In this document: positions 30,210 to 50,795 of the stretch, in pieces
Layout of the letters: each line of letters opens with the position of its first letter
Position numbering within the stretch: the first letter of the stretch is position 1
NCBI GenBank assembly: GCA_902773675.1
Contig: CACYFN010000003.1
Location: 3,209 to 67,208 of the forward strand
Reading direction: 5' to 3'
Source: an uncultured Erysipelotrichaceae bacterium
GTDB lineage: Bacteria > Bacillota_I > Bacilli_A > RF39 > UBA660
Length of the DNA stretch: 64,000 nucleotides
The notes under the pieces: generated by a model
What the model was told of the DNA's origin: nothing
Database searches by the model: none
What the model saw: the letters and a program-made list of their open reading frames with translations, nothing else
Position numbers and translations under genes: made by a program

Positions 30210-30226
30210 AATAATAATGTAAAAAG

Positions 30227-31521: not shown

Positions 31522-31611
31522 TGATAAAAAAAATATATTACTAATATTTATTAGTTAAGAAATATTTTAAAATAATTAAATTATGGTATAATATAAATAA
31601 TTTGATATAGG

Positions 31612-32397
31612 ATGTATTTTATGAATTATAATGATTTATTAGAAGCACATCTAAGATTTGGAACAACCAAAGAAGATATTATTAAAGAAAAAGGATTTGA
31701 AAAAATTCAAGAAAATGTCGTTCTTGCACCTTGGTGGAGACATAATATGTTTGAAAATCAAAATTTCAAAATTGAAAAAATAAATGATGTTGTATATAAC
31801 ATTACATATGAAGATTTAACTTTTTCATATATTGAAATTCATAATATAGGTGCATCAGCAGTAATGGACTATGTATTAGCTCTAGGAGTTACAAAATGTA
31901 AAAACATCATATTTTTAGGATCAACGGGTTCACTAGACGAAAAAATTAAAATAGGTGATATAGTTATACCAAAATACTCTATTTGTGGTGATGGAGCATC
32001 TAGATACTTAAATAAAAATCTAGAAGATGAATTATTTAAAAAAGAATATCCAGCAAAAGAAATAACTAAAGAATTAATTAATTTATTGAAAGAACAAAAC
32101 ATTAAATATCATTATGTACCTAATTTTAGTGTTGATAATATTTTTGCTCAATTTTATCATATTGATAAAATATTGAAATTAGGAGCTAAAACTATTGAAA
32201 TGGAAACAGCAAATCTATTCAAATGTGGTGAAGTAATGAATAAAAATGTAACTGCAATCTTTTGCGTTTCGGATAATACAATATTAAAAAAATCTTTATA
32301 TAGTGGAAGAAGTCAAGAAGAACATGAATATAGACATAATGTTAGATATAATATAATTCCAAAAATTGTTATTGATTTAATAAAAAAATTAAAATAG
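31612..32397 (+). CDS. Nucleoside phosphorylase, PNP/UDP family (DeoD/MTA-nucleosidase-like)
   Basis: IGASAVMDYVLALGVTKCKNIIFLGSTGSL and IEMETANLFKCGEVMNKNVTAIFCVSDN. Extended -10 TGgTATAAT upstream. Confidence 0.55.
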   Translation: MYFMNYNDLLEAHLRFGTTKEDIIKEKGFEKIQENVVLAPWWRHNMFENQNFKIEKINDVVYNITYEDLTFSYIEIHNIGASAVMDYVLALGVTKCKNIIFLGSTGSLDEKIKIGDIVIPKYSICGDGASRYLNKNLEDELFKKEYPAKEITKELINLLKEQNIKYHYVPNFSVDNIFAQFYHIDKILKLGAKTIEMETANLFKCGEVMNKNVTAIFCVSDNTILKKSLYSGRSQEEHEYRHNVRYNIIPKIVIDLIKKLK

Positions 32398-32407
32398 AAA
32401 GTAAATT

Positions 32408-32577
32408 AGTGATAAATCTATCCTATTAGTAACCCATGGTGGAGTATCCGCACTAATTAATACATATTATAATAATAATTTATACGAAGGAGCTATATCA
32501 GATAAATTCTTAAAAAATTGTGAATATGCTTTTTATAACACTAAAAAAAAATTACCCAAAGTAAAGAAAAAATATTA
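32408..32577 (+). pseudogene. Possible C-terminal remnant of a histidine-phosphatase (phosphoglycerate-mutase family) gene
   Basis: An open frame with no start codon encodes ...SILLVTHGGVSALINTYY... and resembles the C-terminal LLVTHGGVIRAL region of that family. Confidence 0.3.
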
Positions 32578-32651
32578 GATTTTATAATATAATTCTTTCA
32601 CACTAAGAATATAAAAAATAATATGGTATAATATTTAATAGGAGTGATAAA

Positions 32652-32942
32652 ATGGCTACAACCAAAGAATATAAAGATTATATCTTAGAAAACTTAAATA
32701 TATTAAAAAATATTACCTATAAACCAATGATGGGAGAATACTTACTATATTATAATAAAGTATTATTTGGTGGAATATATGATAATAGATTATTAATAAA
32801 AAAAACAAATAGTAATAAAGTATATAATTTAAAAGAATCAATTCCATATGAAAGTGCCAAACCAATGTATTTAGTAGATACAGATGACTTAGAATTATTA
32901 AAAAATATTATCTTAGATACATATAAAGATCTAAATAAATAG
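32652..32942 (+). CDS. Small protein resembling the TfoX N-terminal domain
   Basis: MMGEYLLYYNKVLFGGIYDNRLLIK resembles TfoX_N (MFG..GLY..G..FA.I.D..LYLK). Extended -10 TGgTATAAT upstream. Confidence 0.4.
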   Translation: MATTKEYKDYILENLNILKNITYKPMMGEYLLYYNKVLFGGIYDNRLLIKKTNSNKVYNLKESIPYESAKPMYLVDTDDLELLKNIILDTYKDLNK

Positions 32943-32954
32943 ATTGGAGAAAAA

Positions 32955-33521
32955 ATGAGTATATTTGAAATAATATTTATTGCTGTTGGACTGGCTATGG
33001 ATGCATTTGCAGTAGCAATATGTAAAGGCCTATCAATGAAAAAAATAGATTATAAAAAAGCAATTATAATAGCTTTGTATTTTGGATTATTTCAAACATT
33101 AATGCCAGTATTAGGATACTTTCTTGGAAGTAGTTTTACTAATGTAGTAGAAAAAATAGATCATTGGATAGCCTTTATTTTACTATCTATAATTGGTATA
33201 AATATGATTAAAGAATCAACCAGTAAAGAGGAAGAAAAAAGAAATGACAAAGTAGATATAAAAACAATGCTCTTACTTGCTATCGCAACCAGTATTGATG
33301 CCTTAGCTGTAGGTATAACCTTTGCCTTCTTTAAAGTAAATATATTATTATCAGTAATAATTATTGGAATAATAACCTTTATAATATCCTTCTTAGGAGT
33401 AATAATAGGAAATAAATTTGGTGATAAATTTCAAAATAAAGCCGAACTATTTGGTGGAATAATATTAATATTAATTGGTTTAAAAATATTATTAGAACAC
33501 TTAAAAATATTTAATTTATAA
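32955..33521 (+). CDS. mntP: Manganese efflux pump MntP (DUF204)
   Basis: Duplicated GLAMDAFAVA / SIDALAVG motifs in a six-TM protein of 188 aa. Confidence 0.8.
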   Translation: MSIFEIIFIAVGLAMDAFAVAICKGLSMKKIDYKKAIIIALYFGLFQTLMPVLGYFLGSSFTNVVEKIDHWIAFILLSIIGINMIKESTSKEEEKRNDKVDIKTMLLLAIATSIDALAVGITFAFFKVNILLSVIIIGIITFIISFLGVIIGNKFGDKFQNKAELFGGIILILIGLKILLEHLKIFNL

Positions 33522-33541
33522 AAAAATGAAGGAGAAAAAAT

Positions 33542-34036
33542 ATGAAAGATAAAAAGAGTTTAATAATATATTTTAGTAGAGCAGATGAAAATTATGCAGT
33601 AGGTTATATAGATAAAGGAAATACCGAAATAGTAGCAGAATATGTAAGAGATTTAACAGGTGCAGATATGTTTAAAGTAGAACCATTAGTTCTATATGCA
33701 AAAGACTATGCTACTTGTATCGAAGAAGCAAAACAAAGAATTGGTAATGCTCCAATCAAAGAAGAAATAAAAGATATATCACAATATGAAGTAATATATA
33801 TAATGAGCCCAATATACTGGGGAACATATGCACCAGAATTAGAAACAGCCATAAAAAACTTGGATTTTACAGGTAAAATAGTTAGAATAATATCTACCCA
33901 TGAAGGATCAGGACTAGCTAATATGGTAAATGATATTAAAAAAATATGTAGGGGTGCCAACGTACTTGATGATGCAATTGCTATTAAAGGTAGTCAAGCT
34001 AAAAATTCCAAATCTATAATAGAAAATTGGATTTAA
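33542..34036 (+). CDS. Flavodoxin-like protein
   Basis: LIIYFSRADENYAVGYIDKGNTEIVAEYV N-terminus typical of the flavodoxin_4 family. Confidence 0.5.
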   Translation: MKDKKSLIIYFSRADENYAVGYIDKGNTEIVAEYVRDLTGADMFKVEPLVLYAKDYATCIEEAKQRIGNAPIKEEIKDISQYEVIYIMSPIYWGTYAPELETAIKNLDFTGKIVRIISTHEGSGLANMVNDIKKICRGANVLDDAIAIKGSQAKNSKSIIENWI

Positions 34037-34075
34037 AATATAAAGATATGATACAATAACTACCGGTGATTAAAT

Positions 34076-34543
34076 ATGAAAAAAATAATATTAATAATAA
34101 TTATACTTATTATTTGTGGATGTAGTTCTAATAATAAAAATATAATTAGTAAAATAGAATTAGATAATAATAATTGTAAAATAATAAGTGAAATAGATAA
34201 CCATAGTGGATTTCATGGTGATGGAGAATATTTTGCTAAAATAAAATGTTCAAATATTAATAAAGAAGAATTATCAAGACATTGGAAAAAACTACCATTA
34301 TCAAACTCAATAAATGAAGCTACAAATATAAATCATTGTGATAGTAAAGGTTGCTATAATATATATGAAAAATATAATATTCCAAATATAAAAAATGGTT
34401 ATTATTATTTCTTAGATAGAAATTCAGAATCAAAAAATAAATATGATGATACATATTTAAATGATAGACATTCTCATAATTATACATTAGCTTTATTAGA
34501 TAAAGATAATGATATAATATATTATTATGAATTAGATACATAG
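34076..34543 (+). CDS. Lipoprotein (hypothetical)
   Basis: MKKIILIIIILIICGCSSNN, with lipobox IICGC. Confidence 0.6.
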   Translation: MKKIILIIIILIICGCSSNNKNIISKIELDNNNCKIISEIDNHSGFHGDGEYFAKIKCSNINKEELSRHWKKLPLSNSINEATNINHCDSKGCYNIYEKYNIPNIKNGYYYFLDRNSESKNKYDDTYLNDRHSHNYTLALLDKDNDIIYYYELDT

Positions 34544-34801
34544 GACTAACTATGAATGGATTTAGTATATTAATGTTTATATTTACCATATCAGTATTTT
34601 TAGTAGGATTATATATGTTTACCGGTCATAAAATAGATATGTTATCTTGGAAAGCACAATATAAAAATCTAAAAAAAGTGATTGGATTAAAATAGGCAAA
34701 TACACAATGATAGTTAGTATATTCATCTTTATACTTGCTATAATTGGTCTAATATTCACTTTTTAAAATATAAATATAAAAGATATTTATATTTTTTATT
34801 A

Positions 34802-34864
34802 TGTAGTAAAATTGTAGTAAATTTGTAGTTTTGTATTGACAAGATATTTTTTTAGTGATAATAT
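34802..34864 (+). promoter_or_regulatory. Three 11-bp direct repeats abutting a consensus sigma-A promoter (TTGACA-17-TGaTAATAT)
   Basis: TGTAGTAAAAT (34802), TGTAGTAAATT (34813) and TGTAGTTTTGT (34824) at 11-bp period. Then TTGACA 34836-34841, a 17-nt spacer, TAATAT 34859-34864. RBS GAGGTGA before the ATG at 34883. Confidence 0.55.
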
Positions 34865-34882
34865 ACATTTGAGGTGATGCAA

Positions 34883-35473
34883 ATGGAAAGTAAAACAAGT
34901 GCTATTAATATTCAAATAGATAGTAATGTTAAAAAAGAAGCTACCATGGTTTTATCAGAATTAGGATTATCAATGAGTTCAGCAATTAACTTATTCCTAA
35001 AACAAGTAGTTAAAAAAAATGGACTTCCTTTTGAAGTAACTAATGTTGTAGATAAAAAGAAAATACTAGATGTAGTATGCGCATTAATTATGAAAGATGG
35101 AAAATGCTTAATAGCTAGAAGAAGCAAAGATGATCATTTAAAAGGAAGATGGGAATTTCCTGGTGGAAGAAGAGTAGGATTAGAAGACGAAAAGAAAACC
35201 CTACAAAGAGCATTTGATGAAGTATTAAAAATTAATGTTGATATTAAAGATTACCTAACACACAGCATATGTGAATATCCAGGACATATTGTCGATTTAA
35301 AACTATATGAATGTGATTATATTAGTGGAGAATTTAATCTAACAATTCATTCAGAATATAAATGGGTAAATATAGAAGAACTACTAGATTATGACCTAGC
35401 AGATGCTGATGTAGTATTATCAAAATTTTTAATAAAAAAGTATATTGAAGAATCAAGAGAAAAAGGAGAATAA
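34883..35473 (+). CDS. Fusion protein: N-terminal RelB/DinJ-type ribbon-helix-helix domain plus C-terminal NUDIX (MutT-like) hydrolase domain
   Basis: N-terminus INIQIDSNVKKEATMVLSELGLSMSSAINLFLKQVVKKNGLPFEV parallels E. coli DinJ (ARIDEDLKNQAADVLAGMGLTISDLVRITLTKVAREKALPFDL). The C-terminus LIARRSKDDHLKGRWEFPGGRRVGLEDEKKTLQRAFDEVL is MutT-like with a slightly degenerate Nudix box. Confidence 0.6.
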   Translation: MESKTSAINIQIDSNVKKEATMVLSELGLSMSSAINLFLKQVVKKNGLPFEVTNVVDKKKILDVVCALIMKDGKCLIARRSKDDHLKGRWEFPGGRRVGLEDEKKTLQRAFDEVLKINVDIKDYLTHSICEYPGHIVDLKLYECDYISGEFNLTIHSEYKWVNIEELLDYDLADADVVLSKFLIKKYIEESREKGE

Positions 35474-35474
35474 T

Positions 35475-35777
35475 ATGGTAGAACTTAAAAAATTACAAAA
35501 AGAAGTATATCAAAATAAAGTAAATCATAACTTTAATGTAACTGATATTAATTTAGAATTTTGTCTTGCATTTGAAGAATTAGGAGAAGCTCATAATGCT
35601 TGGAGTACAAAAAAATCTGATTTAGGAGAAGAACTTGCCGATGTAGCTATCTATCTTTTAGGACTATCTGAAATATTAAATATTGATTTAGAAAAAGAAA
35701 TATTAAATAAAATAAAAAAGAATGCTAAAAGAGTATATAAAGAAGTAAATGGGGTTATTGTTAAGGAAGAGGGATAA
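35475..35777 (+). CDS. MazG-like nucleotide pyrophosphohydrolase (small all-alpha NTP-PPase)
   Basis: EELGEAHNAW...LGEELADVAIYLLGLSEILNIDLEKEILNKIKKNAKRVY matches the MazG/YpjD core (EE.GE...E..ELADV..YL..LA...GIDLE). ATG at 35475 after AAGGAG. Confidence 0.55.
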   Translation: MVELKKLQKEVYQNKVNHNFNVTDINLEFCLAFEELGEAHNAWSTKKSDLGEELADVAIYLLGLSEILNIDLEKEILNKIKKNAKRVYKEVNGVIVKEEG

Positions 35778-35779
35778 TT

Positions 35780-36595
35780 ATGAATATAGAGGAATTAGAA
35801 AATTTATTTGAAAAATATGATATATTTACACTTGATTCATTAAGCATATTATTAAGTTATTTAGATGAATCAGAATTGAAAGAAATAGGCCCAGTATTTA
35901 GAAATGTATATAAGAAAAAGTATAAAAAGATAGAAGAAGAATTTGAAGGAATAAATGAATATGATGATATAAATATATTATTAAACTTTGATATACAAAA
36001 TATTATTGATAATATTATTTTATTAAATAAGAAAGAATTAGATTTTATAAATCACGTTGTTAGTACATCTTTATCAAAAATAGATAAAACCAAAGATGAA
36101 AATTTTAAAATGGTTTTTTATTTAAAAAGTTATCAACACGAAATTGCTATATTTACTGAATATACAAAGTATTCAGTAAATACTATAGATGATAGCTTTA
36201 CTAAGAAAGAACTTGAAAAATTTTTTGAAAAATATGATGTTATTGAATTAGCTTATATGGAACAGATTATTGAAAATGCACGTTATGAATATAATGTATA
36301 TAGATTATATAAAGCATATAATAAAGTATTAAATAGTAAATCACCATATGATATATATACAATCGATGAATATCATGAAAAACAAAAAACAAGTAGAATA
36401 TCTGATATTAAGAAAAAAAATCATTTATTAAATAAGAAAGAATTAACACTTTTAAAAAATTTAATTGATTCATTTTCAAATATTTTAGATGATGAATATT
36501 ATATAAAAGAATTTAGTATATTAGAAAATTCATTAATAGAAGAAATAGATAAAAGAAAAAGACAAAAAACTATTACCAAAAAACCTAAAAAGTAG
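35780..36595 (+). CDS. Hypothetical protein (271 aa), last gene of the DinJ-NUDIX/MazG operon
   Basis: Start 3 nt after the MazG-like stop. No recognisable motif. Confidence 0.5.
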   Translation: MNIEELENLFEKYDIFTLDSLSILLSYLDESELKEIGPVFRNVYKKKYKKIEEEFEGINEYDDINILLNFDIQNIIDNIILLNKKELDFINHVVSTSLSKIDKTKDENFKMVFYLKSYQHEIAIFTEYTKYSVNTIDDSFTKKELEKFFEKYDVIELAYMEQIIENARYEYNVYRLYKAYNKVLNSKSPYDIYTIDEYHEKQKTSRISDIKKKNHLLNKKELTLLKNLIDSFSNILDDEYYIKEFSILENSLIEEIDKRKRQKTITKKPKK

Positions 36596-36616
36596 AAAAT
36601 AGCTTCTACTTTTTAT
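36591..36616 (+). terminator. Rho-independent terminator
   Basis: GTAGAA-aatagc-TTCTAC hairpin followed by TTTTTAT. Confidence 0.5.
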
Positions 36617-36663
36617 ATTACATTTTAAATAATTATGCTATAATTATTATGAGGAGTGATGAT

Positions 36664-37227
36664 ATGAAAAAAATATTTATACTAATTATTGTAGGCTTAT
36701 TTATAATAACAGGTTGTGGAAAAACTAATGAAGCAAGTAATAATGTAGTAGAAAATAAAAACGAAGTAACAAATAAAGAAGAAAAAATAGTAAAACCAAC
36801 AGCAGATGGAGATGAATTAACAGTAGAGTCATTAAACTTCTTTATACCAACAGGATATACTGAAAACTCATACAATGGTATGATGGGAGTATATGATTAT
36901 TATACAGGTAATGTTACTTTAAGTGAACTTAATGTAGGAGTAGTAGTTACATGGAATGGAAACTATAAAGATTCAAATGCCAAAGATTATATTGAAAATA
37001 AATCTAATACAGCAAAATCAATTCATCTAACAAGTGTAACAACAGAAAAAATTAATGGTACTGATTGGTATGTATTTTCAAATGAAAACAATTATTACTA
37101 TGCAGCTGAATATGATGAAAACTTATATGAAGTAACAGTAGAAAAAAGAAATGATCCACAAAACTTATTTGAAACAACCAATGAAATGGTTAAAAAAACA
37201 TTATTCTTTTTAGAAACAGAAGAATAA
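36664..37227 (+). CDS. Lipoprotein (hypothetical)
   Basis: MKKIFILIIVGLFIITGCGK, with lipobox ITGC. ATG at 36664. Confidence 0.6.
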   Translation: MKKIFILIIVGLFIITGCGKTNEASNNVVENKNEVTNKEEKIVKPTADGDELTVESLNFFIPTGYTENSYNGMMGVYDYYTGNVTLSELNVGVVVTWNGNYKDSNAKDYIENKSNTAKSIHLTSVTTEKINGTDWYVFSNENNYYYAAEYDENLYEVTVEKRNDPQNLFETTNEMVKKTLFFLETEE

Positions 37228-37308
37228 TAAGAGGTAAAATATGAATGATAAAATATGTCAAAGTTGCGCAATGCCAATAATAAATGATACTATAATATTG
37301 GTGATTAA

Positions 37309-37713
37309 ATGAAAAAAATATTAACATTTATAAAAAATAAAGATAATAAATTATTACTATTACATAATAATCCTATAGATCCAATTCATGGAGGAGATAT
37401 ATGGTATACAGTAACAGGTGGAGTAGAAGAATTTGATAATACTTTAGAAAATACAGTAATTAGAGAAATAAAAGAAGAAACTAATTTAGATGTAATTAAT
37501 ACCAAATATTTAGAAATTAATTATACTTATACAAATAGAAAAGGTATAGAATGCATTGAATATGTATTTATAAGTTTAGTAGAAGATGGTAATATCATTT
37601 TAAACGAAGAAAGCATTGGATATAAATGGTTAAATATAAACGATTATATAGAAGAAATCTATTGGTATGGAAATAAAGATGAACTAAGAAAAATATTAGA
37701 AAAAAATTTATAA
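37309..37713 (+). CDS. NUDIX hydrolase
   Basis: GGVEEFDNTLENTVIREIKEETNL Nudix-box-like segment (REIKEETNL). Confidence 0.55.
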   Translation: MKKILTFIKNKDNKLLLLHNNPIDPIHGGDIWYTVTGGVEEFDNTLENTVIREIKEETNLDVINTKYLEINYTYTNRKGIECIEYVFISLVEDGNIILNEESIGYKWLNINDYIEEIYWYGNKDELRKILEKNL

Positions 37714-37850
37714 GATAAATTAAAAAAATTTGCAAAATACCATTTGTAATTACCTAAGATATATGATATCATGAATTTGTCAAGGAAACTTGAATATAAT
37801 AAAAAAAGGGAACATTCAGTTTGGTATGCCGAATGTCTACCCAAATTTAT

Positions 37851-37893
37851 TTCGTTGACATTTAATTCAAATGCGAATTAAGTGTCATTTTTT
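37851..37893 (+). terminator. Orphan rho-independent terminator in an ORF-free 400-bp region
   Basis: GACATTTAATTC-aaatgc-GAATTAAGTGTC (12-bp stem, one mismatch) followed by ATTTTTTTAT. It lies 140 nt downstream of the nearest + strand gene. Confidence 0.45.
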
Positions 37894-38110
37894 TATAACA
37901 GCTACCAATAAGGATAGGAGTAATAAAATGATAGCAATGTATCTAAGAATTTTTATAATAAAAACTCTTTTATTCATTATTATCAAACCTCCTCTCTAAA
38001 AGATAAGAGGTAGACACTAAAGAAACTAAATATTCCCATAAATATTATAACAAATATATTGCAATCAATAAAAAATAGATTATTTGTGAAATAAGCAATG
38101 GAGGAAGTAC

Positions 38111-38743
38111 ATGACAGATATAGAATACTTAAAAAAATATTATAAAGGCAACATGATTGGATATAACTTTGATATAAATAAAGACTGTCTAATACCACGT
38201 TTTGAAACCGAACAATTAATAGAAAAGACTATTAATTATATCAATAAACTATTTAATAAAAAAATAGACATAGTAGATCTAGGTACTGGTAGTGGTTGTA
38301 TAGCAATCACCTTAAAAAAAGAACTAGATTGTAATGTAACAGCTGTAGATATATCAAATAAAGCTTTAAAAATAGCCAGGGGTAATGCTAATAAAAATAA
38401 TTGTCTAATAGACTTCTTAGAAGGAGATATGTTAAAACCATTAAATAAAAAATATGACTTAATAATATCTAATCCTCCTTATATAAGTAGAGATGAAAAA
38501 ATAATGGATATAGTTAAAAATAATGAACCCCATATAGCCTTATATGCTGATAAAGAAGGACTTTATTATTATGAAGAAATACTAAAAAAAAACTATCTAA
38601 TAGCATTTGAAATAGGTCAAGAACAAGCAAATAAAATAAAAGAAATGGCTAAACTATACCTATATCATCCATATATAAAAATAGAAAAAGATTTACAAGG
38701 ATTAGATAGATTTGTCTTTATAACTAATGGAGAAGAAATATGA
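38111..38743 (+). CDS. prmC: Release-factor glutamine N5-methyltransferase PrmC/HemK (short form)
   Basis: SAM-binding VDLGTGSGCIAI and the catalytic NPPY motif (LIISNPPYISRDE). Confidence 0.7.
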   Translation: MTDIEYLKKYYKGNMIGYNFDINKDCLIPRFETEQLIEKTINYINKLFNKKIDIVDLGTGSGCIAITLKKELDCNVTAVDISNKALKIARGNANKNNCLIDFLEGDMLKPLNKKYDLIISNPPYISRDEKIMDIVKNNEPHIALYADKEGLYYYEEILKKNYLIAFEIGQEQANKIKEMAKLYLYHPYIKIEKDLQGLDRFVFITNGEEI

Positions 38744-39369
38744 AAGATGTAGACTTATGGAAATATGAAAAAGAATTATTAAAAGAAGGATATAAATATA
38801 TAGGTGGAGTAGATGAAGTAGGACGTGGACCATTAATAGGACCAGTAGTTACTGCTTGTGTAGTACTACCAAAAGACTTTGTCTTAGAAGGATTAACAGA
38901 TTCTAAAAAATTAAGTGAAAAAAAACGTAATCAGTATTATGATTATATAATTAATAATTGTGTAGCCTATAGTATCGGAATGTGTTCACCAGAAGAAATA
39001 GATGAACTAAATATCTATCAAGCAAGTAGAGTAGCCATGATAAGAGCAATTGAAGAAGTAAAAAAGAAAATACCACTAGATTATATACTAAGTGATGCTA
39101 TGCCAATGGATATAGATATACCAGTAAAAGATATAATTAAAGGTGATGCCAAAAGTATTACCATAGCAGCTGCAAGTGTTGTAGCCAAAGTAACAAGAGA
39201 TAATATAATGTATGAATTAGATAAATTATATCCAGAATATGGATTTAAAAACCATAAAGGATATCCAACTAAAAAACATTACGAAGCACTAAATAAATAT
39301 GGACTTATAGAAGGATATAGAAAAACCTATGGTCCAGTAATAAAAATATTGAAAGGAGAAAAAATATGA
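38740..39369 (+). CDS. rnhB: Ribonuclease HII
   Basis: GVDEVGRGPLIGPVVTACVVLP and DSKKLS motifs. Confidence 0.85.
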   Translation: MKDVDLWKYEKELLKEGYKYIGGVDEVGRGPLIGPVVTACVVLPKDFVLEGLTDSKKLSEKKRNQYYDYIINNCVAYSIGMCSPEEIDELNIYQASRVAMIRAIEEVKKKIPLDYILSDAMPMDIDIPVKDIIKGDAKSITIAAASVVAKVTRDNIMYELDKLYPEYGFKNHKGYPTKKHYEALNKYGLIEGYRKTYGPVIKILKGEKI

Positions 39370-40286
39370 AATTATTACTTTCCCATATAGCTGATTTAGA
39401 TGGTATTACTCCAGTAATATTATTAAACTTATTAGATGAAAAATTTGAATATGTTTTATTTGAAGTAAATGAATTAAGTAGTTATATAGAAGAACAAATA
39501 GAAACAGATTACTTTGATAAATATGATACTATTTATATAACAGATTTAGGAATAACTAAAGAATGTGCAGATAAAATAATAAATAGTAAATATAAAGAAA
39601 AATTTAAATTATTTGATCATCATGAAAGTCATTACTATTTAAATGATTATGAATTTGCAACAGTTATAGAAGAACATGATAACTTTAAAGAATGTGGAAC
39701 ATCATTGTTTTATAATTATTTATTAAAAGAATATAGAAGTGATATCCTAAAAAAGAATAATGTCATAATGTTTGTTGAATTAGTAAGAGAAGGAGATACT
39801 TGGCAATTTACTGACTTAAAAGAAGAATCCTTTAATTTAAATAATTTATTAAACTTTTATGGAAGAGATAACTTTATAGAAATATATTCTAAATCATTAA
39901 AAGAAAATAATGAATTTTACTTTAATCAAACAGAATTAATAATATTAGAATCATTAAATAGACAAAAAAAAGAATATATAGAATCATTTAAAGACAAAGT
40001 AATTATAAAAAAAATAAATGGATACACCATAGGATTTGTATTTGCTGAAAGTTATCGTAGTGAACTAGGAAATTATCTAGCAGAACAATACTACGATCAA
40101 GTAGATTTTATAGGAATAATAAATATGAATAGACATATTAGTTTTCGAGGTAAAAAAGAATTTAAACCAACCAATAAATTTGCTGAAAATTATGGTGGAG
40201 GCGGTCATCCACTAGCTAGTGCTATGAAACTTCCAGAAGATTTAAAAGTAAAAATATTAAAATACATCTATGATGAAAATAAATAA
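39366..40286 (+). CDS. DHH-DHHA1 family phosphoesterase (NrnA-like oligoribonuclease / pAp phosphatase)
   Basis: DLDG near the N-terminus, the DHH motif (LFDHHES), and the DHHA1 GGGGHPLASA. Confidence 0.65.
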   Translation: MKLLLSHIADLDGITPVILLNLLDEKFEYVLFEVNELSSYIEEQIETDYFDKYDTIYITDLGITKECADKIINSKYKEKFKLFDHHESHYYLNDYEFATVIEEHDNFKECGTSLFYNYLLKEYRSDILKKNNVIMFVELVREGDTWQFTDLKEESFNLNNLLNFYGRDNFIEIYSKSLKENNEFYFNQTELIILESLNRQKKEYIESFKDKVIIKKINGYTIGFVFAESYRSELGNYLAEQYYDQVDFIGIINMNRHISFRGKKEFKPTNKFAENYGGGGHPLASAMKLPEDLKVKILKYIYDENK

Positions 40287-40770
40287 AGTAAGCGTTGGAT
40301 ACCTTAAAACTAATTGTTATATAATAAGTATAGATGATGAATGTCTAGTAATAGATCCCGGAGACGAATACGATAAAATTGAAAAAGAAATAAATAATAA
40401 AAAAGTACTAGGTACTATTATAACCCACCATCATTTTGACCATGTAGGATGCATAAATCATTTTAATAATATATATGATATTAATAATTTAAAAGAAGGA
40501 ATAAATAAAATAGGAAAATTTAACTTTGAAGTAATATATACACCAGGTCATACAAATGATTCAATTTGTATCCATTTTAAAGAAGATAATGTAATGTTCG
40601 TAGGAGACTTTCTTTTTAAAGATGGAATAGGGAGAACTGACTTAGGTGGAAATGAAATTGATATGCATAATAGCCTATTAAAAATAAGTAAATATAATAA
40701 AGATATTACTATATTACCAGGTCATGGAGATAAATCTAAATTAGGTATAGAAGTAAATAAATGGATATAA
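40270..40770 (+). CDS. MBL-fold metallo-hydrolase
   Basis: THHHFDHVG (HxHxDH) and a downstream PGHT segment. Confidence 0.65.
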   Translation: MMKINKVSVGYLKTNCYIISIDDECLVIDPGDEYDKIEKEINNKKVLGTIITHHHFDHVGCINHFNNIYDINNLKEGINKIGKFNFEVIYTPGHTNDSICIHFKEDNVMFVGDFLFKDGIGRTDLGGNEIDMHNSLLKISKYNKDITILPGHGDKSKLGIEVNKWI

Positions 40771-40819
40771 AAAAATACTACATCAAAAGTAGTATTTTTA
40801 TATTAATCTTAATTCATAT

Positions 40820-41321
40820 TCAGTATATTTTATCAATCCTATCATAGAACAATATACCATTTAAATGATCTATTTCATGCTGAAAAGCGATAGATAATTC
40901 TTCTCTAGCTCTAACTCTAATTTTATTACCATCTTCATCGAATCCTTCAATTGTAACTCTTGCATATCTTTTTACATGTCCTTCAACTTCACGATTAACA
41001 CTTAAGCATCCTTCGCCAGCTTCAGCAGCAATCATTTCTGTAGAATAACTAACAATTTTAGGATTAATAACAACGTAATTATCAAAAACCCCTTCATCAA
41101 CTTCATGGACAATCACAATTATTCTTTTATTTATACCTAGTTGAGGAAAAGCAAGTCCCATACCTGGTCTTAAATCATATTTTTTAGAATATTCTTCAAT
41201 TTGACTATATGTAAGTTCATCAATAATCCTTTGAATTAATTTTTTTTCATCTTTAGAAATAGGAAAAACAACCTCTTAAAGACTTTTCTTTTTCATCCAA
41301 AATATCTAATTTTTTAAACAT
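40820..41321 (-). CDS. def: Peptide deformylase, apparently frameshifted near its 5' end (frame shift at the A5 run 41274-41278)
   Basis: The frame from the internal M at 41161 carries GLAFPQLG, EGCLSV and QHEIDHLNG. The N-terminal about 55 codons lie in two frames. ATG at 41321 with GGAGGGAGG RBS gives MFKKLDILDEKEKSLRG..., and a 1-nt deletion in the homopolymer would join this to ...PISKDEKKLIQRIIDELTYSQIEEYSKKYDLRPGMGLAFPQLG. This reading was done by hand. Confidence 0.55.
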
Positions 41322-41354
41322 ACTTCTTCCTCCCTCCGGATATTATAGCACATT

Positions 41355-41666
41355 TTACTTAAATTGCAAATAATCACCAATTTTATATGAATTATAGCCA
41401 TTTGGTATTTCATATGTATAATAAACATTTTTTTTAGGTAATATAATTCTACAAGGACCTAAATTATTAAAAATATATAATATTTTATTATTCTTATCAG
41501 TCATAATAACATCTATTTTTTCAAACATAAAAAAAGTATGAATACTATTACATTTATTAAAACATAAACCATAATTTATATTTTTTTTAAACATAAAACC
41601 TTTTAATCTATTAAAAAACTTATCACACATTTTAATATTAATAGCTTTCTTACAAACTAGTATCAT
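41355..41666 (-). CDS. DUF192 family protein
   Basis: GLCFNKCNSIHTFFMFEKIDVI...ILPKKNVYY pattern resembling COG1430/DUF192. Confidence 0.4.
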   Translation of the reverse strand: MILVCKKAINIKMCDKFFNRLKGFMFKKNINYGLCFNKCNSIHTFFMFEKIDVIMTDKNNKILYIFNNLGPCRIILPKKNVYYTYEIPNGYNSYKIGDYLQFK

Positions 41667-41757
41667 GATATCACCAAAAATATTATAACATTTAATAAAT
41701 TAATTGACAAATATATAAAATTATTATAAAATTATATATAGAATAGGTGGCGTAAAT

Positions 41758-41949
41758 ATGAAAATGAATAATAAAGGACAAGCATTAGTTGAATACTTAT
41801 TAATTATCGCAGTAATAAGTGTAGTAATAATAAGTGTAGTAAAATTATTTGGAGGATATTTAAAAGATTCAATGACTAAATCATCTTGCGAATTAACAGG
41901 ACAAAACTATGTAAAAGGAGATTCTCCAGGAGCAGGATATTGTGAATAA
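41758..41949 (+). CDS. Flp/Fap-type prepilin (Tad-pilus-like pilin)
   Basis: MKMNNKG/QALVEYLLIIAVISVVI has G then x4-E-Y, the Flp-family class III leader motif, followed by a hydrophobic helix. Total 63 aa. Confidence 0.5.
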   Translation: MKMNNKGQALVEYLLIIAVISVVIISVVKLFGGYLKDSMTKSSCELTGQNYVKGDSPGAGYCE

Positions 41950-42310
41950 TAAAGGCTTTTCAGCAATCGAGTTACTTGCAATTATCATAATACTAACTAT
42001 TATAGCTTTAATATCAATACCAATTGTATTAAATACAGTTAATAATGAAAAGAAAATGAATAATCGGAAAAGTGTAGATGCATATGGAGAAAATATTGAA
42101 GTTGCTTTTAATCGATATAAAAATGCTCATGATGGAGAATTTACAACTAAATTAGAAGATTTAAAAAAATATCTTACAATAGATAAAGTAAAATGTGATA
42201 AAGTAAATATTGATGAACAAGGTAATGTTACAATAAAAGATTGCTATGTTGATGGAGAAAAAGTCCTAAACGATAAAAGTGAAACCTATGAATATAGTAC
42301 AAAAAAATAG
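41942..42310 (+). CDS. Type IV pilin-like protein (prepilin-type N-terminal cleavage/methylation domain)
   Basis: MNNKG/FSAIELLAIIIILTIIALISIPIV has Gly, Phe at +1 and Glu at +5. Two cysteines near the C-terminus (KCDK...KDCY). Confidence 0.5.
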   Translation: MNNKGFSAIELLAIIIILTIIALISIPIVLNTVNNEKKMNNRKSVDAYGENIEVAFNRYKNAHDGEFTTKLEDLKKYLTIDKVKCDKVNIDEQGNVTIKDCYVDGEKVLNDKSETYEYSTKK

Positions 42311-42326
42311 TTATCCAAAAGGATAA

Positions 42327-42929
42327 CTATTTTATATATTTTAATAAAATTAAACCATTAAAAACAATAAAACCTATAAAACTAATAATATTTACTATTG
42401 AAATAAATTTACTAAATTTTCTACCACTCATTAAAGATATACCAAATAAGAAAAACATAAAAGATAACAAACCTAAATCAATATATAAAAATCTTCTTCT
42501 ATTTAAATATGAAGTAAAAACTACCAAATATAATATTAGTCCTAAACTAATTATTAATAATAATATATTAGAAATTAATAAACCACTACCATATTTTTTA
42601 TCATCTAAATCAAAATCTTCATAATTATTTTCTTCATCTTTTTTTTCTAATTTAATATCTTTACTTAAAGTTTGAGTCAATTCCTCATACTTTTTTGTTT
42701 GACTCAAAGCCTCTTCAATAGATTCAACTTCACTAACATTTTCAATTTCATCTTTCATTGCAATATTATTATTTTCATCAACAACAATTTTATCTAAATC
42801 ATCTTTCTTTTTTGCTTTTTCCCTTTTTTTTCTTTCACTTCGACTCATTAAATCAGTAAAGGATGCAGTCTTATCAAGTTCATCATCTTTAATATCAGAT
42901 AAATCAATTAATCTTTCTTTATTTTTCAT
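42327..42929 (-). CDS. Membrane protein (hypothetical; charged N-terminal half, three to four C-terminal TM helices)
   Basis: ORF-track ORF. Hydrophobic C-terminal half. Confidence 0.45.
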   Translation of the reverse strand: MKNKERLIDLSDIKDDELDKTASFTDLMSRSERKKREKAKKKDDLDKIVVDENNNIAMKDEIENVSEVESIEEALSQTKKYEELTQTLSKDIKLEKKDEENNYEDFDLDDKKYGSGLLISNILLLIISLGLILYLVVFTSYLNRRRFLYIDLGLLSFMFFLFGISLMSGRKFSKFISIVNIISFIGFIVFNGLILLKYIK

Positions 42930-43043
42930 ACCATCACCATACTAATTATAACTTAAAATATAAAAAAAATAAATACATTTAATAAAAAATACAATTATAA
43001 TTTGTATTAATTATTAATAATAGTTGCTAAAAAATGTCGAAAT

Positions 43044-44123
43044 ATGTTATACTTTATATGGATGGTGGTCTACGTGATAGATATAAATTTTAAAAAAACT
43101 TTATTAATGGTTTTGATTCCCTTTATATTTGTTACAGCAATTATACCATTTATTAAAAAAATAGCATTTCACATAGGAGCAATTGATATTCCAAATGAAA
43201 GAAAAGTCCATAAAAAACCAATGCCTAGATTAGGTGGACTAGGAATATATGCTGGATTTTTACTAGGATATATATTGTTCGGTGAGCACACCTATATGAT
43301 GAATTCAATTTTAATAGGAAGCTTTATTTTAATAATTACCGGTATGATAGATGATATAAAACCAATTAAAGCATATCATAAATTAATTGGTCAAATTTTA
43401 GCATGTTTAATTGTAGTTTTTTATGGAGAAGTACTTTTAAAAGATATTAGTTTTTTTGAATTATATATAGATTTTGGAGTTTTTTCTTATCCTATTACAA
43501 TACTTTTTATGTTAGGATGTATTAATTGTATGAATTTAATTGATGGTCTTGATGGACTTGCAGCAGGAATTTCCTCAATATTCTTTCTAACAATAGGAAT
43601 AATATCACTTTTTAAAACATCAGGTGGTCTTTCATTTGAATTATCATTTATATTAACATTAATAATGTTAGGATCAACTGGTGGATTTTTAGTGCACAAT
43701 TTTAATCCAGCTAAAATATTTATGGGAGATACTGGTTCCATGTTTTTAGGATTTATTATTTCAATAATAACATTACTTGGATTTAAAGCAACATTGATGT
43801 CATCGATAATAATACCACTATTTATTTTAGTAGTTCCTATTTTAGATACTTTATTTGCAATTATTAGAAGAAAATTGAAAGGTGAAAGTGTAATTGTTCC
43901 AGATAAAAGTCACATTCATCATCAATTACTAAGACGTAATTGTAGTGTGAAAAAAACAGTATTAATTATATATCTAATAACATTCTTATTTTCAACAGCA
44001 TCCGTAATATATGTACTTGTAGATAATGTAATTGGTTATATTATATATGGAACATTAATGGTATTTGTAATAATATTTGTTCTAACAACAGATATACTAT
44101 TTGAACATAAAAAAAATAATTGA
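43044..44123 (+). CDS. Polyprenyl-phosphate N-acetylhexosamine-1-phosphate transferase (WecA/TagO family, GT4 MraY-like)
   Basis: HKKPMPRLGGLGIY, NLIDGLDGLAAG and GDTGSMFLGF motifs. Confidence 0.8.
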   Translation: MLYFIWMVVYVIDINFKKTLLMVLIPFIFVTAIIPFIKKIAFHIGAIDIPNERKVHKKPMPRLGGLGIYAGFLLGYILFGEHTYMMNSILIGSFILIITGMIDDIKPIKAYHKLIGQILACLIVVFYGEVLLKDISFFELYIDFGVFSYPITILFMLGCINCMNLIDGLDGLAAGISSIFFLTIGIISLFKTSGGLSFELSFILTLIMLGSTGGFLVHNFNPAKIFMGDTGSMFLGFIISIITLLGFKATLMSSIIIPLFILVVPILDTLFAIIRRKLKGESVIVPDKSHIHHQLLRRNCSVKKTVLIIYLITFLFSTASVIYVLVDNVIGYIIYGTLMVFVIIFVLTTDILFEHKKNN

Positions 44124-44944
44124 AAGGATTTGAAAACATGATAAAAAATACTTTTCTAAATTTTAAACATTATTGGTTTTTAATGACCCAATTAATATCA
44201 AGAGATTTTAAAGTTAAATATAAACGAAGTGTATTAGGCGTTGTTTGGAGTCTATTAAATCCAATATTAATGATGTCAGTAATGGCAGTAGTTTTTTCTC
44301 AAATGTTTAGAGTTAGAGTGGAGGGAGCTAACTACTTAGTTTATTTAATGACAGGAATTATAATGTTTAACTATTTTAATGAAGCATCAACAAACGCTAT
44401 GACATCAGTAGTAGATAATTTTGGACTAATTAACAAAGTATATATTCCAAAATATATATTTCCAATTGCAAAATGCTTATTTATTGGAATAAATTTTTTA
44501 TTAACATTAATCCCATGGCTAGGAATAATATTACTTTCTTATGTGGGACTTGGTGAATATACATGTCACATAAATATAAATTATTTATTGCTACCATATG
44601 TTTTTTTATGTTTATTTCTTTTTACAGTTGGTATGGGATTATTTTTGTCTTGCGTTTCAGTTTTTTTAAGAGATGTAATTTACATATATGGAATAGTAAC
44701 AATGATTTGGAATTATATTACCCCTGTATTTTATAGTATTGAAATAATACCTGAAAAATTAATACCAATATTTAAATTTAATCCATTATATCAATATTTA
44801 AATGCAGCAAGAGAAATAGTATTATATTCAAAATGTCCATCGGTATATAATTTAATTGCTATAACATTATATTCATTATTTGCAGTAATAATTGGTGGAA
44901 TAATATTTAAAAAGAATCAAGATAAATTTGTATATTATGTTTAG
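44120..44944 (+). CDS. ABC-2 type polysaccharide/teichoic-acid exporter permease (Wzm/TagG-like)
   Basis: Six-TM ABC-2 permease directly upstream of the ATPase gene. Confidence 0.7.
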   Translation: MKGFENMIKNTFLNFKHYWFLMTQLISRDFKVKYKRSVLGVVWSLLNPILMMSVMAVVFSQMFRVRVEGANYLVYLMTGIIMFNYFNEASTNAMTSVVDNFGLINKVYIPKYIFPIAKCLFIGINFLLTLIPWLGIILLSYVGLGEYTCHININYLLLPYVFLCLFLFTVGMGLFLSCVSVFLRDVIYIYGIVTMIWNYITPVFYSIEIIPEKLIPIFKFNPLYQYLNAAREIVLYSKCPSVYNLIAITLYSLFAVIIGGIIFKKNQDKFVYYV

Positions 44945-44953
44945 GAGGTTAAA

Positions 44954-45694
44954 ATGATTGAATTAGAAGATGTCACAATGAAATTTAATTTAGGAATTGA
45001 AAAAAATTTTTCTATAAAACAAGCATTTGTAAATTTTTTTAATCCTAAACATAAAAAACAGAAAAAAGAATATTTTAATGCCTTAAAAAATATCAGTTTT
45101 AATGTAAAAAAAGGAGAGGTAGTTGGACTTATAGGTAGTAATGGAGCGGGTAAATCAACATTACTTAAAGTAGTAAGTGGCGTAATGAAACCAACACAAG
45201 GTAAAGTTACAGTACATGGAGCAATATCACCAATGATTGAACTTGGAGCAGGTTTTGATATGGAATTAACAGCCAGAGAAAACATTTATTTAAATGGATC
45301 AATTTTAGGATATTCAAAAAAGTTTATTGATGAAAAATTTAATGATATTGTTGAATTTTCCGAATTAAGAGATTTCTTAGATGTGCCAATAAAGAATTTT
45401 TCATCAGGTATGACTGCAAAACTTGCATTTTCAATTGCAACAGTAGTAGATCCAGAAATATTAATTGTAGATGAGATACTATCTGTTGGAGATATTAAAT
45501 TTCAAGAAAAAAGTAAAAACAAAATGTTAGAAATGATTAAAGGTGGAACAACAGTATTGTATGTTTCACATTCATTACAATCTATTAAAGAATTATGTGA
45601 TAAAGTAATTTGGATAGAACATGGAGTAATGATTAAAATGGGTGATGCTAAAAAAATATGTGAAGAATATTATGAACATCAAATGCAGAAGTAG
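44954..45694 (+). CDS. ABC exporter ATP-binding protein (Wzt/TagH-like)
   Basis: Walker A GSNGAGKSTLLK, signature FSSGMTAKLAFS, Walker B ILIVDEILSVGD. Confidence 0.85.
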   Translation: MIELEDVTMKFNLGIEKNFSIKQAFVNFFNPKHKKQKKEYFNALKNISFNVKKGEVVGLIGSNGAGKSTLLKVVSGVMKPTQGKVTVHGAISPMIELGAGFDMELTARENIYLNGSILGYSKKFIDEKFNDIVEFSELRDFLDVPIKNFSSGMTAKLAFSIATVVDPEILIVDEILSVGDIKFQEKSKNKMLEMIKGGTTVLYVSHSLQSIKELCDKVIWIEHGVMIKMGDAKKICEEYYEHQMQK

Positions 45695-45702
45695 GAGGAA
45701 AT

Positions 45703-47511
45703 ATGGAAAAATATATACATTATTGTTGGTTTGGTGGAAAACCACTTCCAAAACTAACTAAGAAATGCATTAAAAGCTGGAAAAAATTCTTACCAGATTT
45801 TGAAATAATAGAATGGAATGAATCTAATGTAAATTTGGAAGAATGCCCATTCATAAAAGAAGCATATCAACATAAAAAATGGGCATTTGTTGCAGATTAT
45901 GCTAGAACAGTTGCTCTTTATAACAAAGGCGGTATTTATTTTGATACAGATATGTTACTTAAAAAGCCAATTGATTTCTTATTTGAACATGAAACATTTT
46001 TAGGTATAGAAGATTCATTTATGGTAAATGCGGCAGTATGGGGAGCTAATAAACCAAAATCATATTTTTCAAAAAAAATGTTAGATTTTTATAAAGCTCA
46101 AAAACATTTTGATGTAAATAATATGTTTAAAGTTAGTATTCCAAGAATTATGACTTCACTACTAAATGAAGAAGGATTAGATCATACATCAAATGAAATA
46201 CAACATTTAAAACACAACATAACAATTTATCCAAGAGAGTATTTTTATCCACTATCATTTGATTTTAAAGATAATGTCTTTACTGATAATACTTGTATGA
46301 TTCATTATTTTGATGCCAGTTGGTTTAGTAAAAAAGAAAAATATAGAGTTAAATTAAACAGAAAAATTGGTGAAAAAAATGTAAATAGAATGATTGGAGT
46401 ATATAAGAAAATAAGACATCTAGGTGGAGCAATTATTAAAAAAACATTATATAAACCAGCTAAATACTTTAAATACACTTATTTAAATAAAGGAAAATAT
46501 AAAAATGATTTAAATAAATCAATTAATGCATTAAAAAATATAAATGGTGATTATATAGTAATGCATAATCCTGATTGGCTAGGAATAACAAGTGCTACTA
46601 TCGAATTATTTGATAATAACAGAGTACCTTGTGGTGAATTTTTAAGAAAAAGTGATATGAAAAAATTTGCAAGTGTAATACTAGAAAAAAATATTAAGCA
46701 AGTTATATTTAGTGCAATGTGTATTGGTTGGAAAGATTTAGCCTATTATCTAAAATCAAAAAATCCTAATATATTAATAAAAGTATTCTGGCATGGAAGT
46801 ATATCACAAGTTTCAGAACCATATGGTTGGGCAAGAAATATCGAATTAATAGATATGAGTAAAGATGGAACATTAACTACATTTGGGACTTGTAAAGAGT
46901 CATTAGTAAAATTCTATGAAAATTTAGGTATCAATACTAAATTTATAATGAATAATGTAACACTAAAAAATAAAATTGAACATAAAAATCCGAAAGAAGT
47001 AGTTATAGGACTTTATGCAGCAAAAAAAGATGATTGGAGAAAAAACCTTTTTGCTCAAATAGCTGCTGTATCACTAATAAAAAATGCCACAATCGATATA
47101 ATACCGATGGACTATGAAGCCGCTACATTTGCTTCCAATCTAGGATTAAAAGTAACAGGTATTGATAAAGCAATTCCAAGAGAACAATTACTAGAAAGAA
47201 TGAGTAAAAATACTATGAATTTATATGTTACTTTCTCAGAGTGTGCACCAATGCTACCAATCGAAAGCTTTGAAGTAGGAACAATCTGCTTAACTGGCAA
47301 TAATCATCATTACTTTAAAAATACAGAATTAGAAAAATATTTAGTTGTAGATAATGAAGAAAGTCCAGTTGAAATAGCTAACAAAATTGAATTATGCATA
47401 AAAAATCAAGAAAAAGTATTAAAACTATATAAAGAATGGAAAAAGAAAAATGATACTAACAGCACAAAAAGTGCTACAGATTTTATAAATGATGGAATGG
47501 GGGAAAAATAA
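45703..47511 (+). CDS. Glycosyltransferase, N-terminal GT32-like DXD-motif domain with a C-terminal extension
   Basis: HYCWFGGKPLP...KKWAFVADYARTVALYNKGGIYFDTDM, a Gly_transf_sug-type motif. Confidence 0.5.
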   Translation: MEKYIHYCWFGGKPLPKLTKKCIKSWKKFLPDFEIIEWNESNVNLEECPFIKEAYQHKKWAFVADYARTVALYNKGGIYFDTDMLLKKPIDFLFEHETFLGIEDSFMVNAAVWGANKPKSYFSKKMLDFYKAQKHFDVNNMFKVSIPRIMTSLLNEEGLDHTSNEIQHLKHNITIYPREYFYPLSFDFKDNVFTDNTCMIHYFDASWFSKKEKYRVKLNRKIGEKNVNRMIGVYKKIRHLGGAIIKKTLYKPAKYFKYTYLNKGKYKNDLNKSINALKNINGDYIVMHNPDWLGITSATIELFDNNRVPCGEFLRKSDMKKFASVILEKNIKQVIFSAMCIGWKDLAYYLKSKNPNILIKVFWHGSISQVSEPYGWARNIELIDMSKDGTLTTFGTCKESLVKFYENLGINTKFIMNNVTLKNKIEHKNPKEVVIGLYAAKKDDWRKNLFAQIAAVSLIKNATIDIIPMDYEAATFASNLGLKVTGIDKAIPREQLLERMSKNTMNLYVTFSECAPMLPIESFEVGTICLTGNNHHYFKNTELEKYLVVDNEESPVEIANKIELCIKNQEKVLKLYKEWKKKNDTNSTKSATDFINDGMGEK

Positions 47512-48386
47512 TGTTAGAAGAAATTAAACAGCATCAAAATGATAAATGCATATCATTAGTTCCACCATTTGATTTAAAATACTTTGAAGGAATAAATAAT
47601 ACATTAGGAAATGCCATAAAAATTGGCCATGTTGAAGTAAATGAAAAAATAATAAAAACAATTAATGAATCCAAAATAGAGAAAATATATTTATTTGGTA
47701 ATCATGATATTTATAGATACATCCTACCAAGACTAAAAAAGAAAATAGAAGTATGTTGGGTATTTAATGAATCATTTTCTAGTTTATCCAATGGTGGAGT
47801 TAGATACTATTTAAACACTATCTTTGAATATTATGAAAGAAATCTTATAAAATCAATAGGATGTACTAGTAAAGATAACAAAAAAATATTTGAAAATTCA
47901 AAATATAATTGTGAATATATAAATTTGCAAATCAAGAAAATAGAATCAAAATCAAATAAGAGTAATTCAATAGGAATTCTAAGTGATGACTATGATCCAA
48001 ATAATAACTTTTATAATCAATTAGCAGCTCTAACTTTTATTGATTATGATGTATGTAAATATAGATGCGTAATGGATGCAACAAATCATTTTCAAAAATA
48101 CTTTAACATAAAAAGTAAAATAACAGATAATATGGATGAAGTAATTAAAAATAATTTTGTTAATTTATACATTAATTTTACAAATACCAATAAAGAATTA
48201 ATCATGAGAAGTTTTAACTACGGAGTACCTGTAATTGTTGGTAATACAGATTTTTATGATAATAATAATTATTTAAAAGAAAATCTTGTAGTAAAAAGTG
48301 ATGATGATATTAATGAAATAGTAGAAAAAATAAACTTTGTAAAGAGAAACTATAAAAAGATAATGGAAGAGTATAATAATATCTAG
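47511..48386 (+). CDS. Hypothetical protein in the polysaccharide locus
   Basis: ORF-track ORF, translationally coupled to the preceding gene. Confidence 0.4.
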   Translation: MLEEIKQHQNDKCISLVPPFDLKYFEGINNTLGNAIKIGHVEVNEKIIKTINESKIEKIYLFGNHDIYRYILPRLKKKIEVCWVFNESFSSLSNGGVRYYLNTIFEYYERNLIKSIGCTSKDNKKIFENSKYNCEYINLQIKKIESKSNKSNSIGILSDDYDPNNNFYNQLAALTFIDYDVCKYRCVMDATNHFQKYFNIKSKITDNMDEVIKNNFVNLYINFTNTNKELIMRSFNYGVPVIVGNTDFYDNNNYLKENLVVKSDDDINEIVEKINFVKRNYKKIMEEYNNI

Positions 48387-48396
48387 GTGATTGCTT

Positions 48397-49617
48397 ATGA
48401 GATATGGACTTTTATATTATAAAAATACAGATAATATAGGTGATGATATTCAAAGTTATGCCCAAGAACAATTTTTACCAAGAATCGATTACATGATTGA
48501 TAGAGAGAATTTGGAACAATTTGTTCCAAATGAAAAAAAATACATATATACAATAATGAATGCTTGGTATATTCATGATAAATACAACTTTAATTTTTCA
48601 CCATATATTTATCCATTATTCATATCAATGTTTTTCAAAAACTTTCCCTATGAAGATGGAGTAACATATGGAACTGATTATTTAAATGAAAATGTTATAA
48701 CTGATTTAAAAAAGTATTCACCAGTAGGAGCAAGAGATTTACACACAAAAAAAATATTTGATAATTTAAATATTGAAAATTATTTTTCTGGTTGTTTAAC
48801 ATTAACTCTTGAAAAATTACCTAATATCAAAAAAGAAAAATATATTGTAGTAAATGGACTTAATGAAGAAGAAATAGAATATATAAAAAGTAAAACAAAA
48901 AAAGAAGTAAAAGTTGTAAAACAAGATGTCCCATATGGTTCCTTTTCCAATGAAACTTGGGAACAAAGAAAAGATAGAGTTGTAGACTTATTAAAATTAT
49001 ATCAAGGAGCACACATGGTTATTACAACGAAACTACATTGTTCACTTCCATGTTTAGCTCTTGAAACACCAGTATTACTATTATATGATAAATCATTTCC
49101 TGAAAACGAAGATAGAATAGGTACTTACTTAGAATATCTAAATCATATCGATAGAACAGAATTAAAATCATCAAATATTAATTTTAATAAACCATTAAAT
49201 AATCCAGAAAAGTATTTAGAATTAAGAAAATCACTTATAAAAAAATGTAAAGAATTTATAAATAATAATAAACAAATAGATATAAATGATTTACCTGATA
49301 TTGAACAATATAAATATTATATAAAACGATCATTTGAATCTAGAAAACCAATAATTAATCATTTAAAAGAATTATCAAATAAATATGTAGAAGAATGTAA
49401 AAAATCATCACAAATGTATGATGAATTAAATGAACTAAAATATCAAAATAATGATTTAAAAAATAAAATAGATAACTTAAAAGAAAATAATGAAAAGCTT
49501 AGTAAAGAAAAAGATGAAATAAATACTAAATACAATGATTTAAACGAAAAAATGTGTAGAATTGAGAATTCTAGGTCATATAAATTATATAAAAAAATAA
49601 AAAAAATATGTAAGTAA
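48397..49617 (+). CDS. Polysaccharide pyruvyl-transferase-like protein with a C-terminal coiled-coil
   Basis: The N-terminus YYKNTDNIGDDIQ resembles the PS_pyruv_trans NxGDD motif. C-terminal heptad-like NELKYQNNDLKNKIDNLKENNEKL. Confidence 0.4.
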   Translation: MRYGLLYYKNTDNIGDDIQSYAQEQFLPRIDYMIDRENLEQFVPNEKKYIYTIMNAWYIHDKYNFNFSPYIYPLFISMFFKNFPYEDGVTYGTDYLNENVITDLKKYSPVGARDLHTKKIFDNLNIENYFSGCLTLTLEKLPNIKKEKYIVVNGLNEEEIEYIKSKTKKEVKVVKQDVPYGSFSNETWEQRKDRVVDLLKLYQGAHMVITTKLHCSLPCLALETPVLLLYDKSFPENEDRIGTYLEYLNHIDRTELKSSNINFNKPLNNPEKYLELRKSLIKKCKEFINNNKQIDINDLPDIEQYKYYIKRSFESRKPIINHLKELSNKYVEECKKSSQMYDELNELKYQNNDLKNKIDNLKENNEKLSKEKDEINTKYNDLNEKMCRIENSRSYKLYKKIKKICK

Positions 49618-49641
49618 TAATAGCATTAGGATGGTGAAATT

Positions 49642-50778: not shown

Positions 50779-50795
50779 TTAAGGAGGAAGAAAAC

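Follow-up and report, generated by a model that had tools for sequence, protein, structure and literature searches.

A peptide deformylase gene of a rumen/gut Bacilli lineage is probably broken by assembly gaps in a single deposited contig

Results

Structure of the def locus in the deposited sequence

The window, meaning the whole 64,000-nt stretch of DNA analysed here, carries on its minus strand a gene for peptide deformylase (def). The gene stands between those for a DUF192 protein and an MBL hydrolase (DUF192 - def - MBL hydrolase), which is its orthologous position. The parts of the locus are given below; a slash marks the junction between two bases adjacent in the deposited sequence.

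41329..41337, minus strand: Shine-Dalgarno-like GGAGGGAGG, seen in the sequence itself 7 nt before the def ATG
41273..41321, minus strand: def 5' segment, codons 1-16 (MFKKLDILDEKEKSLR) with the initial base of codon 17, no difference from the intact allele
41273/41272, minus strand: 14-nt gap, AAATAAGCAAAGAT on the gene strand, with loss of E17-D21 (EISKD) and a +1 frame shift; no microhomology
40828..41272, minus strand: def core segment VVFPISKDE...ILFYDRIDK, which contains the three catalytic motifs, from sequence and profile matches
40828/40827, minus strand: 11-nt gap, ATAAACCATTC on the gene strand, with loss of NKPF, a second frameshift and a premature TGA at 40822-40820
40798..40827, minus strand: def 3' tail YTEYELRLI and TAA, out of frame with the core as deposited

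The ATG at 41321 opens a frame of 22 codons (MFKKLDILDEKEKSLRGCFSYF) closed by TAA at 41255-41253, so that the start, the ribosome-binding site and the closed frame were as an earlier note on this DNA had described them. The Def core, with the motifs GMGLAFPQLG, EGCLSV and QHEIDHLNG, was likewise found where that note had placed it, in the +1 frame relative to this ATG. The core frame is open from just past a TAA at 41278-41276 to the TGA at 40822-40820, and its first ATG, GTG or TTG is the ATG at 41161, from which a product of 113 aa is read; the largest deposited def ORF is 40820-41161. A promoter-like TTGCAA-16-TGnTATAAT was detected at 41369-41342, just upstream of the Shine-Dalgarno sequence, although such sites were no commoner than in shuffled sequences; in DNA this rich in AT the promoter/terminator scan was uninformative, with 5 sites found and 5.8 expected.

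The three motifs of the core frame (GMGLAFPQ, EGCLS, QHEIDH) include the Gln of motif 1 and the metal ligands, namely the Cys of EGCLS and the two His of HExxH. The deposited 113-aa ORF scored 117.8 bits with TIGR00079 and 114.2 bits with PF01327, above both cut-offs (103.95 and 22.8), and spanned profile positions 43-150 only. All the solved peptide deformylases (PDFs) found have at least about 39 residues before motif 1, which the 113-aa ORF lacks. An uninterrupted ORF including the N-terminal region of about 50 residues before motif 1 was absent from the window, owing to two frameshifts, and present in the same-strain contigs L001, L104 and L003.

Intact def allele in other assemblies

A protein search with the joined Def translation returned more than 100 homologues with 81-97% identity. 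Nearly all of the 120 listed were 182 aa in length, starting with MFKKLDILDEKEKSLREISKDVVFPISKDE and ending with DRIDKNKPFYTEYELRLI; in some other metagenomic proteins, such as the 178-aa P0008, the tail differs slightly in length without loss of frame. The intact Def matched TIGR00079 at 133.6 bits and PF01327 at 126.9 bits, likewise above the cut-offs.

The contig with the best Def match, L001 (ENA ERZ28614181), was collinear with positions 38059-51321 of the window and showed 0 mismatches over 13.3 kb, with four gaps on the window side. Three independent assemblies with 0 mismatches, represented by L001/L103 (ERZ28614181), L104 (ERZ27280225) and L105 (Logan ERR3224568), each contained whichever of the missing segments they spanned. 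Two of the four gaps lie in def, and the deposited gene differs from the intact same-strain allele by these 14- and 11-nt gaps alone, with 0 mismatches across the gene. It is the absence of these segments that breaks the frame, as their lengths are not multiples of three. The 11-nt gap replaces the conserved tail NKPFYTEYELRLI by IY-stop, and the first base missing in it is a G/A polymorphism between co-occurring strains. Reinsertion of both segments gave a 549-nt ORF identical to the 182-aa Def P0001, which is encoded on 5 public contigs.

The 14-nt segment was present in 9 independent contigs, three of them (L001, L104 and L105) with 0 mismatches to the window, and the 11-nt segment also in 9 contigs, with 0 mismatches in L001, L104, L101 and L102. 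For the deleted products, namely the 113-aa Def fragment and a 210-aa PrmC, the databases list a single contig, an NCBI/ENA entry of 70,423 nt that also encodes the other proteins of the window and is evidently its source. A scan of JGI metagenomes for either allele of the 14-nt site gave no match. The idea that the gaps were runs of N stripped when the window was cut was rejected, as gene calling on the source contig had yielded precisely these deleted forms.

These comparisons revised the repair put forward in the earlier note, which was the removal of one base from a homopolymer at 41274-41278. The plus strand reads TCTTA at that position; the A5/T5 run lies at 41264-41268 and had the same length in all 9 contigs compared at the 14-nt site. 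Deletion of a single base does fuse the two frames formally, and does so anywhere within 41275-41256, but the true difference is the 14-nt gap at 41273/41272. The typical Def of about 175 aa anticipated from such a repair was not obtained either: the 1-nt correction yields 166 aa without EISKD and the tail, a length found in 0 of 80 related species, and the true product has 182 aa. The second frameshift, at 40828/40827, had been missed.

Conservation of def in related genomes

The best-matching GTDB species representative encodes a Def with 86% identity at the protein level. In the 80 genomes of related species that could be found, all of them uncultured Bacilli or 'Tenericutes' MAGs of rumen and gut origin, tblastn gave a single uninterrupted def match per genome, with protein identities of 64-86%. 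The five residues between LR and VxFP were kept in 80/80 relatives, and the region of NKPF was well conserved. As the gene was intact and invariant in length at both gap sites in these 80 genomes, def is evidently under purifying selection in the lineage. The positions of the gaps, the identity to intact same-strain contigs and the absence of the interruption in relatives were all direct results of the comparisons. No second def was found within the 64-kb window. Sequence and gene context identify the locus as the single orthologous peptide deformylase gene, of class II (Gram-positive type), in an uncultured rumen/gut bacterium of the Bacilli with very AT-rich DNA (24% GC).

Gaps in prmC and clustering of the four lesions

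The other two gaps are located 2-3 kb from def in prmC and belong to the same cluster of lesions.

38111..38743, plus strand: prmC (release-factor glutamine methyltransferase) with two gaps, from comparison with 0-mismatch contigs
38157/38158, plus strand: 66-nt gap in prmC, in frame, which removes EALNRLEDGEPVQYIVGNVDFY in the conserved EPVQYIVGNVDFY region
38588/38589, plus strand: 21-nt gap in prmC, in frame

The TIGR03534 score of PrmC decreased from 240.6 bits for the intact form to 190.8 bits with the gaps, under the cut-off of 199.1. The 21-nt segment was found in L001, L096 and L097 and also in L098, a Logan contig with 0 mismatches.

Public contigs allowed a comparison over about 61 kb of the window, with 99.98-100% identity, among other parts over 779-23407, 25781-38157 and 42985-64000. 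All four gaps (66, 21, 11 and 14 nt) fall inside 3,116 nt (38157-41273), and the chance that four independent events would cluster in this way within the length compared was about 5e-4. No multi-base indel was detected outside 38157-41273 in the other ~58 kb compared, where the only length differences were two of 1 nt in poly-A tracts (22348 and 32543). The cluster consisted of four indels and zero substitutions, with junction microhomology of 0, 1, 0 and 0 nt. Indels without substitutions and with nearly no microhomology correspond to neither the spectrum of slippage nor that of gradual pseudogene decay.

Other observations in the window

The first of the two poly-A differences lies in an A13 tract ending at about 22348 (A12 in the near-identical L010). 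The tract breaks a 108-aa lipoprotein-like ORF (MKKYLIIIIIFLVGCSKKKK...) at 22300-22627 on the plus strand, right past the lipobox cysteine. No other true frameshift in a homopolymer was seen in the window, and either a phase-variable contingency tract or an error in homopolymer length could account for this one. The second is intergenic, at about 32535-32543, with A9 in the window and A10 in L004. A diverged direct duplication of about 690 nt with 80% identity was found at 14774-15458 and 16067-16755, comprising genes for an HTH-type regulator and a Bro-N-domain protein, and a gene of the tyrosine integrase/recombinase type is located further upstream at 8774-9661. This region may be a remnant of a mobile element or prophage. 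The Bro-N gene encodes 277 aa in L011 and 120 aa in the window.

Assembly context of the gap region

Among the contigs carrying the MBL-hydrolase gene that adjoins def, 7/9 were under 5 kb, compared with 0/8 and 0/7 for window genes at 10.8 kb and 53 kb, respectively. L098 (Logan) and L099 (MEGAHIT k141), produced by different assemblers, both stop precisely at 40827, where the 11-nt gap has its left edge. The 54-kb contig to which L004 belongs breaks off 42 nt inside the 66-nt prmC segment.

Positions 38000-43000 of the window are split in public assemblies into many contigs of 0.9-3.3 kb, and the flanks assemble as contigs of 20-70 kb. Strain divergence in these 5 kb was 2-6% (L002, L003, L096, L097 and L109-L111), and this strain-variable hot spot adjoins a cell-wall polysaccharide gene cluster (43-64 kb).

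Identical public contigs are labelled STEW19-1_SAMEA..., which points to the cattle-rumen dataset described in Stewart et al. 2019. Assembly in that work was by IDBA-UD and MEGAHIT, with further nanopore assemblies in which residual indels were acknowledged (PMC6785717). The source contig may stem from one of these methods.

Programmed frameshift of prfB in the same window

The gene for release factor 2 (prfB), at 2472-3570 on the plus strand, showed a canonical programmed +1 frameshift, the site of which is known to be widely conserved. From the ATG at 2472 the gene reads MEIFELVNTYDSFNNRINELWRSL-stop and then continues as DTEAKQEKIKELE in the +1 frame, with the SD-like GGAGG at 2533-2537 followed by CTT TGA C at 2541-2547. 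The downstream ORF matched TIGR00020 at 490 bits. The shift site also shows that this organism reads TGA as a stop codon. At the def junction (AGA GGT TGT TTT TCC), we found no stop at the shift point, no internal SD and no slippery or hungry-codon context. No relevant report on programmed frameshifting in def was found among the titles and abstract openings surveyed.

Discussion

Origin of the gaps

An ordinary class II def broken by assembly or scaffolding gaps of this one contig is the explanation that we favor, with a probability of roughly 0.7. As other assemblies of the same strain contain the missing segments, one of them in a match of 13.3 kb without a mismatch, the broken gene is most likely due to an assembly defect. 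We infer that short contigs from this strain-heterogeneous, easily fragmented stretch were probably merged or polished and that a few bases dropped out where they met. In that case the organism itself would produce a normal 182-aa metalloenzyme removing the N-formyl group from nascent proteins. The sequencing error considered in the earlier note was accordingly close in kind, since an error-type cause is the best supported, but the error would consist of multi-base gaps, two of them in def, with no homopolymer involved and with prmC included in the cluster. Some observations count against an assembly defect: the deposited record is contiguous with no Ns at the junctions, gene calling gave exactly the deleted products, and only one of the four junctions matches the ends of other contigs exactly. 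Furthermore, both gaps in prmC are in frame, which would occur in one of nine cases at random and which selection on real deletions would favor.

That the four deletions are real is a view that we regard as unlikely. A sub-lineage would have been hit by clustered mutation, for example through error-prone repair of a damaged 3-kb stretch, by which def was inactivated to a very recent pseudogene and prmC was shortened. The deletions are indeed present in the deposited record, from which their products were called; the frame of prmC is preserved by both gaps; and in-frame variants of the Def tail are known elsewhere, as in P0008. On the other hand, the zero substitutions relative to intact same-strain contigs left no sign of relaxed constraint across the gene and the 13.3 kb, and none of the junctions was found on any second contig, with 9 contigs intact at each def site. 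The uninterrupted def of the 80 related species, with no second copy in the window, also argues against true loss, and an allele that is lethal or strongly deleterious should not dominate an assembly consensus. Loss of def is known to be tolerated only if formylation (fmt) has been lost too. A bolder form of this view, in which a rumen Bacilli sub-lineage lost def and remodelled prmC in one homology-independent event of clustered deletion, so that the four gaps arose together, is more doubtful still. If true, it would imply def-independent life with formylation lost, or a localized multi-deletion process not normally seen in bacteria.

The remaining three explanations were effectively excluded. 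Some Firmicutes have two def genes, and the earlier note had considered that this copy might be an inactive paralogue beside a functional one elsewhere in the genome. This is very improbable in view of the conserved orthologous context, the base-for-base identity to the same-strain intact allele outside the gaps and the one def match per genome in 80/80 relatives. A homopolymer-length error of 1 nt in the A5/T5 run is even less probable. Removal of one T at 41268-41264 does join the def frames formally, and 1-nt differences in poly-A length do occur in the window (22348 and 32543), but the comparison with 9 independent contigs showed a clean 14-nt gap of mixed sequence beside an unchanged T5 run, the positions first proposed are not a homopolymer, and the product of a 1-nt repair would lack EISKD and still be truncated at the C-terminus. 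A programmed +1 ribosomal frameshift, the third cause suggested at first, or a functional split or short Def is hardly credible: a strong SD and ATG do precede a short ORF overlapping the core frame, but the interruption occurs in 0/80 species and the 120 listed homologues are nearly all of full length, the junction has no prfB-like context, restoring one frame leaves the protein unrestored owing to the second frameshift at the 3' end, and the 113-aa ORF is without the residues that precede motif 1 in solved PDFs.

Consequences for annotation

The case bears on annotation quality, as annotation of this MAG would turn an essential gene for translation maturation into a pseudogene or a fragment of 113 aa, and would make prmC too short. 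Such miscalled def and prmC would reduce the estimated completeness and could lead to wrong conclusions on metabolism or essential genes. The case further illustrates that repairing a frame by 1 nt may look neat formally and still be mistaken, and that near-identical contigs reveal the true lesion. A def-null bacterium would hold moderate interest in the event that the deletions were real.

Comparison with known systems

The closest structures were those of class II PDFs, namely Geobacillus stearothermophilus PDF2 (1LQY), Bacillus cereus PDF2 (2OKL) and Staphylococcus aureus PDF (1LQW). The intact allele aligned with 1LQY without gaps over the first ~78 residues, including the position of EISKD, and with one 1-residue gap later (E 8e-47). 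It shares with these enzymes GxGLAxPQ, EGCLS and QHEIDH along with the Cys and two His ligands. Unlike them, the deposited frame is broken twice, and the host belongs to an uncultured Bacilli lineage with 24% GC.

The deposited def resembles prfB in that a short ORF comes first and the main protein is encoded downstream in the +1 frame. In contrast to prfB, def shows no signal of that kind, its interruption is not conserved, and the 14-nt gap accounts for it. The problem is the same as that addressed by IDEEL in Stewart et al. 2019 (PMC6785717), where an assembly indel makes a predicted protein far shorter than its near-identical homologues. The indels in that study were residual nanopore errors, whereas those in the present contig are of 11-66 nt, clustered and without homopolymer context.
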